5,577 nucleotides of DNA from Escherichia phage G4. A model generated the notes under the pieces. That model had not been told where the DNA came from, did not search any database, and worked only from the letters and a program-made list of their open reading frames with translations. Position 1 is the stretch's first letter. Each line of letters begins with the position of its first letter. The position numbers and the translations under genes were made by a program. Location: sequence record NC_001420.2; one strand, given 5' to 3'. Positions 4 to 5,577 of this stretch are shown in pieces.

Positions 4-33
4 TTGACTAATACTCAATCACCACTCTAATAT
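4..33 (+). promoter_or_regulatory. Candidate sigma70 promoter for gene A (PA): -35 TTGACT (4-9), 18-nt spacer, -10 TAATAT (28-33)
   Basis: Sequence match to -35/-10 consensus in the H-A intergenic region, where phiX174-type phages carry PA. The predicted start near nt 40 would give a leader containing the GGAGG SD for ATG 59. Prediction from the hexamers only. Confidence 0.4.
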
Positions 34-58
34 GCCTCCCATCAAACGGAGGCTTTTC

Positions 59-1723
59 ATGTTTAAAGTACATTCTGACTACTTCAGCAAACCTAACATC
101 GACGCAATCAAACCTCTCGTCGAAACTGCTGGTATGTCTGTTCTTACTCAATCTCCAAACCTCCGTATCTGGAAACAGTGCAATACTCGCATCAAATTAC
201 TGGAAGAAATCCTTGCTCACTATACAAATGGTATTCGCCGTGACGACAATGGTGACTTCTGGATGAATCCCAACTCTCAACTCGCAACTACTATTGCCTA
301 TCGTGCTCATCACAAAGGCCATAACCCTAAGTTCAAACAATACCCAGAAACCTTCACTCTGGACGACATTATTACTGGTAAACCAATCCCTCAAACTGCC
401 CCTGACGAATTACAACTCTCCGATGAAATCGTTGAAGACTATCGCCTTACAGTCCTCTCCATAATCGAAGAATTGCAAGAATGCTATGACGTGCTCGGAC
501 AACTTGATATTAATAACACTATAGACCACAAACCCCTCGGTAATGACCATTGGAACCTCCTCTATGAAAAACCCGTATACAAACATTGGTATCAGCTCGT
601 TTCAAATCGACCCCTTAAAGATATCCGCGCCGATTACAACTATGCAAAGGCTAAGGGTGTTAAAGATGAGTGCTCAAAAATCTTGGAGGAGTCAACTATG
701 AAGTCTCGACGTGGCTTTACCGTTCAAAGATTAATGAATGCTATGCGTACTGCCCATTCTAAGGGCTGGTATGTCGTATTCGATACTCTTACTCTAGCCG
801 ATGACCGCTTAAAGGATTTCTATGATAATCCCAATGCTCTTCGTGACTACTTCCGTGATATTGGTCGTATGGTGCTTACTGCCGAAGGTCGCTCGGTGCA
901 TGACTCATCTTCCGACTGCTATCAGTATTTTTGTGTGCCAGAGTATGGTACACAGCACGGTCGTCTACATTTCCACGCAGTGCATCTTATGCGCACACTT
1001 CCTCTGGGTTCTCTGCACCCTAACTTCGGTAAGCTGGTACGCATCAATCGGCAAATAAATAGCTTGCAAAACACGTGGCCTTATGGTTACTCTATGCCCA
1101 TCGCAGTCCGGTACTCCCAAGACGCATTCTCTCGCGCTGGCTGGCTCTGGCCTGTGGACTCAAAGGGTGAACCCCTTAAAGCTACCTCGTATATGGCTGT
1201 AGGCTTCTACGTTGCTAAATACGTTAACAAAAAATCAGATATTGACATGGCCGTAAAAGGCCTAGGGAATAAAGAATGGAACAATTCACTCAAAACCAAA
1301 ATCAACCTCATACCCAAGAAAGTGTTCAGAATACGAATGTCTCGCAATTTCGGAATGAAACTGTTATCAATGGCTCACCTGTCAGCGGAAACCCTGATGG
1401 AACTGACCCAAGTGGGTTACGACGTGACCCCGTTCAACAACATCTTGAAGCAGAACGCCAAGAAAGAGCTCAAATCGAGGCTGGCAAAGAAATCTGTCGC
1501 CGACGTTTTGGAGGCGCAACCTGTGACGACGAATCTGCTAAAATTCATGCGCAATTTGACCCGAACAATCGGAGCGTCCAACCTACAGAGTTTTATCGCT
1601 TCAATGACCACGAAATTAACAAGTACGGATATTTCTGATGAAACCAAAAACTACGTTGCTTCTGCAGGAATTGCTGTTGCTAACTTACGAATTAAATCGA
1701 AGTGGACTGCTGGTGGAAAATGA
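59..1723 (+). CDS. A: Replication initiation protein A (rolling-circle HUH endonuclease); 554 aa from ATG 59. The ORF track's upstream in-frame ATG at 32 would give 563 aa.
   Basis: Long ORF with HUH motif HFHAVH (nt 968-985) and the paired catalytic tyrosines in [15 protein letters not shown] (Tyr codons at 1208-1210 and 1220-1222), both typical of phiX174-type gpA. The C-terminal half aligns almost residue for residue with recalled phiX174 A (e.g. [29 protein letters not shown]). ATG 59 is preceded by GGAGG (48-52) at 6-nt spacing; ATG 32 has no Shine-Dalgarno (SD) and lies inside the candidate -10 element. Stop TGA 1721-1723 overlaps the gene C start (ATGA). Confidence 0.9.
510..539 (+). 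other. Origin of viral (+) strand rolling-circle replication; gpA recognition and nick site (conserved 30-mer)
   Basis: Exact match to the 30-nt origin CAACTTGATATTAATAACACTATAGACCAC, which is conserved among phiX174, G4 and relatives and lies inside gene A. In phiX174 gpA nicks between the G and A of CAACTTG^ATA, which corresponds to between nt 516 and 517 here. Confidence 0.88.
698..1723 (+). CDS. A*: A* protein, an in-frame internal initiation product of gene A (341 aa)
   Basis: In-frame ATG at 698 preceded by strong SD GGAGGA (685-690) at 7-nt spacing. The product begins MKSRRGF..., matching the recalled phiX174 A* N-terminus (MKSRRGFAIQRL...), and the 341-aa length equals phiX174 A*. 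Expression of A* from this genome is inferred, not seen. Confidence 0.6.
1276..1638 (+). CDS. B: Internal scaffolding protein B (120 aa), wholly nested in gene A in a different frame
   Basis: 120-aa ORF beginning MEQFTQNQ... and ending ...[45 protein letters not shown], closely matching recalled phiX174 B (MEQLTKNQ... [10 protein letters not shown]... FYRF...GYF). Same length as phiX174 B. Stop TGA 1636-1638 overlaps the K start (TGATG). Confidence 0.92.
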
Positions 1724-3892: not shown

Positions 3893-3999
3893 GGCCGCCC
3901 CTCTACTGGTCAGATACCTGCCCAATGTGGGGCGGACCGTGCCTACGGAGATACTCGAGTCTCCGATACATGGACGGCGAAAGCCGCCGTCCCTACTGC
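3893..3999 (+). other. Cluster of three GC-rich stem-loops in the F-G intergenic region; candidate complementary (-) strand origin / primase recognition structure
   Basis: Stem-loop 1: CCGCCCC (3895-3901) pairs with GGGGCGG (3929-3935), 7 bp with a 27-nt loop. Stem-loop 2: CGGAGA (3946-3951) pairs with TCTCCG (3960-3965), 8-nt loop. Stem-loop 3: GGACGGCG (3972-3979) pairs with CGCCGTCC (3985-3992), 5-nt loop. A repeated motif GCCGCC..(C)CTACTG follows stems 1 and 3 (3894-3908 and 3983-3998). The G4 complementary-strand origin recognised by DnaG primase is known to lie in the F-G intergenic region and to consist of stem-loops. Confidence 0.6.
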
Positions 4000-4563: not shown

Positions 4564-5577
4564 ATGTTTGGCTCTATCGCTGGCGGTATCGCCTCCGCAC
4601 TTGCCGGAGGCCTTATGGGTAAATTATTTGGCGGCGGTCAGTCCGCCGACTCTACCGGAATCCAAGGCAACGTCCTTGCTTCCGACAACAATGTTGTAGG
4701 TGCTAATGATGCTGGTATTAAATCTGCTATTCAGGGCTCTACTGTCCCTAACTCTCAGGAAGCTGCTCCCTCTGCTATCTCTGGCATCCTTGCCGACTCT
4801 GGCAAGCATGCGCTCTCGTCTCTTACCAATGCTGGTGCAAATAAACTCATGGAGGCTGTCGGCCTTTCTAAGTCTGCCTCTGACAAGGGCAAGGACACAA
4901 AAGACTATCTCGCCGCCGCATTCCCCGAGCTCAACCCATGGGAACGTGCTGGTGCTGGCGCTTCTAGTCCAGGCATGCAAGACGCTGGCTTCCAAAATCA
5001 GAAGGAGCTAACCAAGATGCAGCTTGACAACCAAAAGGAAATCGCTAAGATGCAAAACGAAACTCAGAAGGAAATTGCTGGGCTTCAATCTATTACATCA
5101 CGCGAAAATACTAAGGATACTGTCTATGCTCAAAATGAAATGCTCGCGTATAACCAAAAAGAGTCTATGTCACGCGTTGGCGCTATTCTCGAAAACACAA
5201 GCCTCACCAAACAGCAACAAACTTCTGAAATTATGCGGCAAATGCTTACTCAGGCTCAAACCGCAGGTCAATATTTTACAAATGACCAAATCAAGGAGCT
5301 TACGAGAAAAGTTGGTGCTGATATTGATGCTGTTCGCGCTAACACTGCACGCACCCATGTAGAAACCGACCGCTCAAAACAGGAAGTACAAAACTCCCGT
5401 TATGCCTCTTCTCAGGTAGGTAAAACCGCTAAGGACGTGTCCAATGCAATTACTGATACAGCTGGTTCTATTGTTGATTATTTTCGTGGTGCTGATCAAA
5501 AAGTGGCAGACGTTTACAACAACTATTTCAAAGATGGCAAATCGAAAGGAATAGAATCCAATCACCGCTCCAAATAA
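4564..5577 (+). CDS. H: Minor spike / DNA pilot protein H (337 aa)
   Basis: Product [26 protein letters not shown]...[24 protein letters not shown]...[77 protein letters not shown]...[31 protein letters not shown] is highly similar to recalled phiX174 H, with a glycine-rich hydrophobic N-terminus and a central coiled-coil-like region. SD AAGGA (4552-4556) at 7-nt spacing. Stop TAA is the last 3 nt of the window. Confidence 0.95.

Follow-up and report, generated by a model that had tools for sequence, protein, structure and literature searches.

Where does gene A of Escherichia phage G4, which encodes the replication initiation protein gpA, begin? The DNA analysed here (the window, 5577 nucleotides (nt)) is the complete phage G4 genome and matches AF454431 with 99.6% identity from end to end. 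Since gene H ends with the stop codon TAA at 5575-5577 of the plus strand and the genome is circular, nt 1-58 constitute the H-A intergenic region, which read-through transcripts from gene H enter at this stop codon. Two ATG codons of the same frame, at 32-34 and 59-61, lie 27 nt apart at the head of gene A with no stop codon in between. The open reading frame (ORF) listing extends from 32 to 1723 and gives a protein of 563 amino acids (aa), and the form initiated at ATG 59 has 554 aa. We conclude that gene A of G4 very probably starts at ATG 59 and that nt 4-57 form a conserved cassette composed of a promoter, a terminator hairpin and the Shine-Dalgarno (SD) sequence of gene A. The coding sequence then runs from 59 to 1723 on the plus strand (554 codons and the stop), as annotated in AF454431.

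A sequence-only reading of this locus had described the start of gene A as ambiguous. The two in-frame ATG codons are real, but the question was settled by the original G4 annotation. The protein read from ATG 59 is letter for letter the A protein of the original and RefSeq entries (CAA24011.1 and YP_009497836.1), and the start is not an open question because the 554-aa form has been the gene A annotation of G4 since 1978 (CAA24011.1) and is that of RefSeq. Both the start call and the underlying architecture are already known, from the G4 annotation and the description of phiX174. What is added here is the hairpin as the cause of the upstream ATG, a comparative and covariation test, and a database check.

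Only ATG 59 is preceded by a Shine-Dalgarno sequence

The 17 nt upstream of each of the 118 plus-strand ATG codons were paired with the tail of the 16S rRNA. The GGAGG motif at 48-52 sits 6 nt before ATG 59, and the anti-SD pairing of this start (-9.5 kcal/mol) is the best among the 11 annotated genes and falls within the top 1.7% of the 118 ATG codons. By contrast, ATG 32 scores +2.6 kcal/mol, the 99th percentile at the worst end of the distribution, which amounts to no pairing. This difference between the two codons is far from chance, whereas the presence of an upstream in-frame ATG is not in itself rare, as gene F also has one. The energies agree with the sequence-only reading, which had assigned a well-spaced GGAGG to ATG 59 and none to ATG 32. 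Direct reading of the DNA likewise returned the positions that it had given for both ATG codons, for GGAGG (48-52) and for the hexamer TAATAT (28-33), as well as MPPIKRRLF as the peptide that ATG 32 would add. ATG 32 overlaps TAATAT by 2 nt.

Two other starts were considered and rejected. Initiation downstream of ATG 59, the next in-frame ATG being codon 26, is excluded because the protein is conserved from about residue 13 onwards: an alignment across genera shows conserved residues at about 13-25 of the 554-aa form, with the IEAIKPLVE-AG block beginning about 12 residues in. A leaderless mRNA starting at A32 is ruled out by the lack of a -10-like hexamer at the needed distance upstream.

Within the first 95 nt, the window differs from G4 isolate Anc (AF454431) at a single position, G86A. 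At nt 86 the window encodes Ser10, and Anc and all other G4-group genomes encode Asn10.

The interval between the two candidate start codons is a hairpin that abuts the promoter

A terminator scan identified GCCTCC-CATCAAAC-GGAGGC at 34-53, followed by TTTTCATGTT, an element that fills the gap between the two ATG codons. The 5' arm GCCTCC (34-39) and the 3' arm GGAGGC (48-53) enclose the loop CATCAAAC (40-47), whose sequence varies freely between lineages, and are followed by a U-tract (TTTT, 54-57) like that of an intrinsic terminator. The hairpin has 6 base pairs (bp), 5 of them GC, and an 8-nt loop, and its folding energy of -11.7 kcal/mol corresponds to z = -3.16 relative to dinucleotide shuffles. 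Its 5' arm starts with the G of ATG 32, immediately after the -10 hexamer, and its 3' arm includes the gene A SD (48-52). The apparent codons MPP...RRLF are therefore the two arms of the hairpin read as triplets. What nt 34-57 really contain is this hairpin with its U-tract, which the sequence-only reading had overlooked. By homology, it is probably the G4 counterpart of T_H, the intrinsic terminator of phiX174, which is about 90% efficient (PMC11527146); termination in G4 would then occur at the U-tract. A search of nt 1-200 against Rfam matched no family.

Upstream of the hairpin, a promoter scan located the gene A promoter P_A, with the -35 hexamer TTGACT (4-9), an 18-nt spacer and the -10 hexamer TAATAT (28-33), for a score of 9/12. 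The -35 hexamer occupies the same place in relatives and is homologous to that of phiX174 pA, and the -10 hexamer is homologous to TTTCAT at 3950-3955 of phiX174. Promoter activity of P_A is thus suggested by its phiX174 homologue, in which saturation mutagenesis found both hexamers (-35 at 3927-3932, -10 at 3950-3955) to be mutation-sensitive (10.64898/2026.07.25.740675). The upstream ATG (32-34), a non-functional start devoid of SD, consists of the last two bases of the -10 hexamer and the first G of the hairpin. Because the -10 hexamer ends with AT and the hairpin begins with G, ATG 32 can be seen as a by-product of the packing of these two elements.

The leader of gene A is conserved as an RNA stem

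To what extent relatives of G4 share this arrangement was examined with gene A leaders from 18 Bullavirinae: eight G4-group genomes; ID18, WA14, EMCL318 and L078; ID2, FL68 and ID204; lillemer and L026; phiX174; the alpha3-like WA13, phiK, L091, L093 and L096; and the distant L007 (gpA identity 52-55%). A scan of IMG/VR gave 6 loci, and a metagenome scan gave 78 loci, mostly phiX174 spike-in, which yielded L026, L078, L091, L093 and L096. All leaders share the same layout, namely a -35 hexamer TTGAC(A/T), a -10 hexamer, a GC hairpin 0-1 nt further on, a T-run and the annotated ATG. The hairpin is present in all 18 leaders, with energies of -11 to -18 kcal/mol, and in each of them the annotated ATG lies 5-9 nt after the end of the stem. 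Although genomes of the G4 group diverge by about 3%, 360 of the 363 records of this group have an identical 61-nt leader.

For the covariation analysis, 13 distinct sequences were aligned, anchored at the first base of the hairpin. Pairing of the outer 6-bp stem is complete (78 of 78 cells), so that 34-39 and 48-53 pair in every sequence, and the TTT of the U-tract is invariant. Compensatory changes affect two of the six pairs: one has gone from U-A to C-G, for which L091 shows a U-G intermediate, and the other from C-G to U-A. In 500 shuffles, neither the pairing nor the covariation score of the real alignment was reached, and pairing fell to 31-67% when the partner was displaced by 1-3 columns. 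The covarying pairs correspond to few evolutionary events, because they mostly reflect one clade split, between the alpha3-like phages and the rest.

The upstream ATG is distributed differently from the hairpin. It is present in the G4, ID18, ID2, L026 and phiX174 lineages and missing from 7 of 12 distinct lineages (lillemer, WA13, phiK, L091, L093, L096 and L007), being replaced by ATA in lillemer and by ATC in L007. The alpha3-like phages have TTG at the junction; it lies 35 nt before the start in a different frame, and a stop comes after it in most of them. Wherever the ATG exists, it is made of the last two bases of the -10 hexamer (TAATAT, TAACAT, TATCAT, TTTCAT or TCTAAT) plus a G. Comparison of the first nine codons across relatives had been proposed in the sequence-only reading as a check on the longer form; the extension peptide turned out not to be conserved, as the would-be peptides read MPPIKRRLF, MPPNQRRLFY, MPPNHRRLSY, MPPNLGGFF and MASINFGGFF. 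The last of these belongs to L026, in which the ATG is one base further from the stem and the arms are read in another frame. Since the peptide varies by lineage and the L026 arms are read in a different frame, selection acts on the stem and not on the peptide. Judging by these alignments, the 27 nt between the two ATG codons evolve as an RNA stem with compensatory changes and not as codons.

Some variation at the junction and in the spacer was also seen. In L026 the junction is TCTAAT-G-GCCTCC (2259-2291), with the upstream ATG 30 nt from the start and in frame. In lillemer (L024, 3320-3350, minus strand) it is TCTAAT-A-GCCTCC, with no ATG and a distance of 29 nt, so that loss of the ATG coincides with loss of the frame. 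ID18 (L008, 1-35) and WA14 (L019, 1-35) have only 15 nt between the -35 hexamer TTGACT and the -10 hexamer TAACAT, and their close relatives EMCL318 (L023, 1-38) and L078 (about 905-940) carry 3 extra bases, giving an 18-nt spacer. This natural variation between 15 and 18 nt should markedly alter the strength of P_A.

A proposed role for the position of the promoter

The geometry of the cassette suggests how gene A could be expressed. Transcripts that originate from the strong upstream promoters and run through gene H would carry the whole hairpin, and most of them would terminate at the U-tract; those that read through would keep the SD locked in the stem. The sigma-70 RNA polymerase starts 6-9 nt after the -10 hexamer. 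On this basis the P_A transcript of G4 is predicted to start at about nt 39-42, likely at A41; a literature search by sequence string and by topic found no published +1 of pA for phiX174 or G4. P_A transcripts would begin after the 5' arm, so that ATG 32 would be absent from these RNAs, the hairpin could not form, the transcripts would be immune to T_H and the SD would be comparatively free. In this way, gene A would be shielded from late-gene transcription, and its expression level would be determined by the weak P_A. In vitro, the pA RNA of phiX174 may begin with pppAAAUCUUGG, a 5' end within the hairpin that would fit this scheme.

Folding predictions are compatible with such a scheme. In read-through contexts, the folding ensemble keeps the SD paired throughout (0% unpaired), and the predicted cost of opening the ribosome binding site (RBS) is 11.7 kcal/mol on read-through RNA versus 4.0 kcal/mol on an RNA starting after the 5' arm, a contrast that has the same direction in most relatives. 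The modelled energies thus point to an SD that would be more accessible on P_A transcripts than on read-through RNAs. The sequence-only reading had proposed that ATG 32 would lie at or upstream of the transcript 5' end; by geometry it would fall outside P_A transcripts, and it is present on RNA reading through from gene H. In one recent model of phiX174 expression, T_H is taken to truncate pA transcripts, which the geometry of P_A and the hairpin makes unlikely.

Annotation and database status of gene A

In the curated records (14 G4-like ones, those of phiX174 and those of the alpha3-like phages), the annotated start of gene A is always the ATG that follows the hairpin. A collection of about 15 billion proteins does not contain the exact long forms of G4 (563 aa), ID18 or ID2, and where JGI/IMG and Logan called the gene automatically in G4-like phages, they gave the short form. 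The situation of phiX174 is different, as its long form (522 aa, MPPNLGGFF...) was found on 240 contigs and its short form on at least 1000. The expectation that automated callers would favour the longer form is therefore only weakly borne out, occasionally for phiX174 and never for G4-like phages. The 522-aa protein bears labels like 'DNA replication protein [Neisseria gonorrhoeae MU_NG26]', is filed under Enterococcus faecalis and under eukaryotic names as well, and is also the A protein of Salmonella phage SP14 (WYA77335.1). These phiX174 entries look like spike-in contamination combined with an automated miscall of the start codon.

One contig encountered in this survey, FUFK010037421.1 (327,964 nt), contains about 60 head-to-tail copies of phiX174 with an exact spacing of 5386 nt, and is presumably a concatemer of the sequencing spike-in or an assembly artefact.

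Gene F of G4 offers another case of an extended ORF. It opens at ATG 2561, in frame and 39 nt upstream of the annotated start at 2600, and the G of ATG 2561 is the first base of a terminator-like hairpin between genes J and F (2563-2580, GTGGGAC-CGCG-GTCCCAC). This ambiguity is specific to G4, ID18, phiX174, WA13 and phiK having in-frame stops 3-12 nt before the F start.

Taken together, the SD energies, the overlap of ATG 32 with the -10 hexamer, the curated annotations and the leaders of relatives support initiation at ATG 59, the start that the sequence-only reading had preferred.

Weighing of the alternatives

Several points weigh against the reading proposed here. The G4 U-tract is short (TTTT followed by C), and the match to P_A, taken alone, occurs at chance frequency (10 sites versus 8.0 +/- 2.8 in shuffles). 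The SD of a P_A-like RNA is still partly paired in weak alternative structures, with an unpaired probability of about 0.2. The upstream ATG is in frame and open (27 or 30 nt) in each of the five lineages that possess it. Lastly, a literature search found no N-terminal protein sequence of gpA for G4 or phiX174. The phiX174 infection proteomics paper (PMC8125068) contains no N-terminal data, and the formyl-methionine (fMet) peptide cited for the phiX174 gene A start, fMQGVEFDNGDMYVDGHK, begins at the internal Met62, after ..SFR (PMC6883844 Table 1), and was detected only in the recoded kleenX174 genome (PMC6883844). This peptide does not document the N-terminus of gpA and could result from internal initiation or from a chemical formylation artefact.

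The alternative that survives best concerns the function of the hairpin. The element at 34-53 might act chiefly as a translational operator or as an RNA-stability element, protecting the 3' ends of H mRNAs or switching the SD, a possibility that we regard as unlikely and that would leave the start-codon conclusion unchanged. A U-tract of only 4 T would fit such a role. In phiX174, the 3' stem of T_H overlaps the gene A RBS (GGAGG, 3969-3973) and is mutation-sensitive, whereas the 5' stem is largely tolerant (10.64898/2026.07.25.740675), so that termination itself seems to be weakly selected in the laboratory. Terminator hairpins have also been reported to stabilise upstream phiX174 transcripts (PMC3335065). 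However, the hairpin and T-run are conserved, with TTT invariant, in all lineages, and the homologous element is the strongest terminator of phiX174, its hairpin being the most stable terminator hairpin of that genome (PMC3335065); moreover, the roles are not mutually exclusive.

It is still less probable that both starts are used, a minor 563-aa isoform being made from ATG 32 on read-through RNA and the frame being maintained for the sake of a functional A protein. On such RNA the hairpin would hide the normal SD until it was melted by a ribosome that initiated at ATG 32 (ATG 3954 in phiX174); in phiX174 the 522-aa form would be revealed by the peptide MPPNLGGFFMVR. The constant frame speaks for this possibility, as it is kept although the lengths of the stem, the loop and the spacer differ by single nucleotides (phiX174 versus G4, and L026 shifted by 1 nt), and lillemer, the only close relative with the two positions out of frame (29 nt), has lost the ATG. 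Full sequestration of the SD on read-through RNA points in the same direction, as does the noticeable share of phiX174 gene A RNA that may come from read-through, given the net 0.29-fold change in transcription measured for the combined pA/T_H element versus about 90% termination. If ATG 32 is a packing by-product, the constant frame must be due either to chance (about 1 in 9) or to weak counter-selection of upstream ATG codons that are out of frame. Yet about two independent events (phiX174 versus G4, and L026) underlie the frame statistic (p of about 0.1), and part of the difference between 27 nt in G4 and 30 nt in ID18 and ID2 can be explained if the true start itself has moved, since such a move has to keep the frame. 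In gene F of G4, the same geometry has arisen by chance and is not conserved. Because of the small number of independent frame events, the possible start relocation and the accident in gene F, we give a real minor long isoform little weight. In addition, ATG 32 has no SD (+2.6 kcal/mol), the hairpin at whose foot it stands (about -11 kcal/mol) would fill the downstream mRNA channel of the ribosome, and the codon lies 31 nt past the H stop codon, which is far for termination-reinitiation. The extension peptide is not conserved and seven other lineages keep the hairpin in the absence of the ATG, and in the 5' stem of phiX174 only 3 of 23 mutations were detrimental (10.64898/2026.07.25.740675). 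Were this alternative true, gpA would exist as an isoform longer by 9-10 residues, and G4-like and phiX174-like phages would possess a second, promoter-independent route to the replication protein.

That ATG 32 is the sole true start, giving a gpA of 563 aa, is scarcely credible: although it is the first ATG of the ORF and some automated pipelines called the homologous long form of phiX174 (240 contigs; WYA77335.1), it has no SD whereas ATG 59 has the strongest gene SD of the genome, it overlaps the conserved -10 hexamer and would thus be off P_A transcripts, it is not conserved in Bullavirinae, unlike the downstream ATG used by all curated annotations, and the intervening 27 nt evolve as a stem with compensatory changes.

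Initiation at ATG 59 downstream of a promoter-hairpin cassette brings little beyond annotation hygiene: the standard 554-aa gpA of G4 is right, the tempting longer ORF is explained, and the over-extended phiX174 gpA (522 aa) is flagged as having entered public protein databases. The arrangement has teaching value, and it is relevant to quantitative models of phiX174 expression, as a promoter would fire from within a terminator whose 3' arm is the RBS. In such a design, only promoter-proximal transcripts would be both immune to the terminator and translatable.

Comparison with known systems

The H-A region of phiX174 (about 3927-3983) is built like that of G4, with a -35 hexamer TTGAC(A/T), a -10 hexamer ending with AT, an abutting hairpin, a T-run and the ATG. 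In both phages, the hairpin has GCCTCC...GGAGGC arms of which the 3' arm is the GGAGG RBS, and an in-frame ATG precedes the start by 27 nt (3954 versus 3981 in phiX174). The two regions differ in their details: the stem has 8 bp in phiX174 and 6 bp in G4, the loop 3 nt and 8 nt, respectively, the T-run reads TTTTTT in phiX174 and TTTTC in G4, and the -10 hexamer is TTTCAT with a TATG extension and a 17-nt spacer in phiX174 but TAATAT with an 18-nt spacer in G4. Termination and promoter function have been measured in phiX174 only and are predicted for G4.

In Alphatrevirus (WA13, phiK, L091, L093 and L096), a -35 hexamer TTGACA and a -10 hexamer TATATT similarly abut a GC hairpin that is followed by a T-run and the ATG, and the 3' arm of the hairpin carries GAGG. 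By contrast with G4, the stem is GCCCTC/GAGGGC, a compensatory replacement, the inner stem is longer and the upstream ATG is missing; the element is found at the end of an H-A intergenic region of about 750 nt.

The longer ORF of G4 gene A also resembles the generic longest-ORF artefact, in which an in-frame upstream ATG without RBS lengthens the ORF. Unlike such an artefact, ATG 32 is pinned by the -10 hexamer and the hairpin, and the upstream ATG persists in several lineages because two overlapping functional elements hold it in place.

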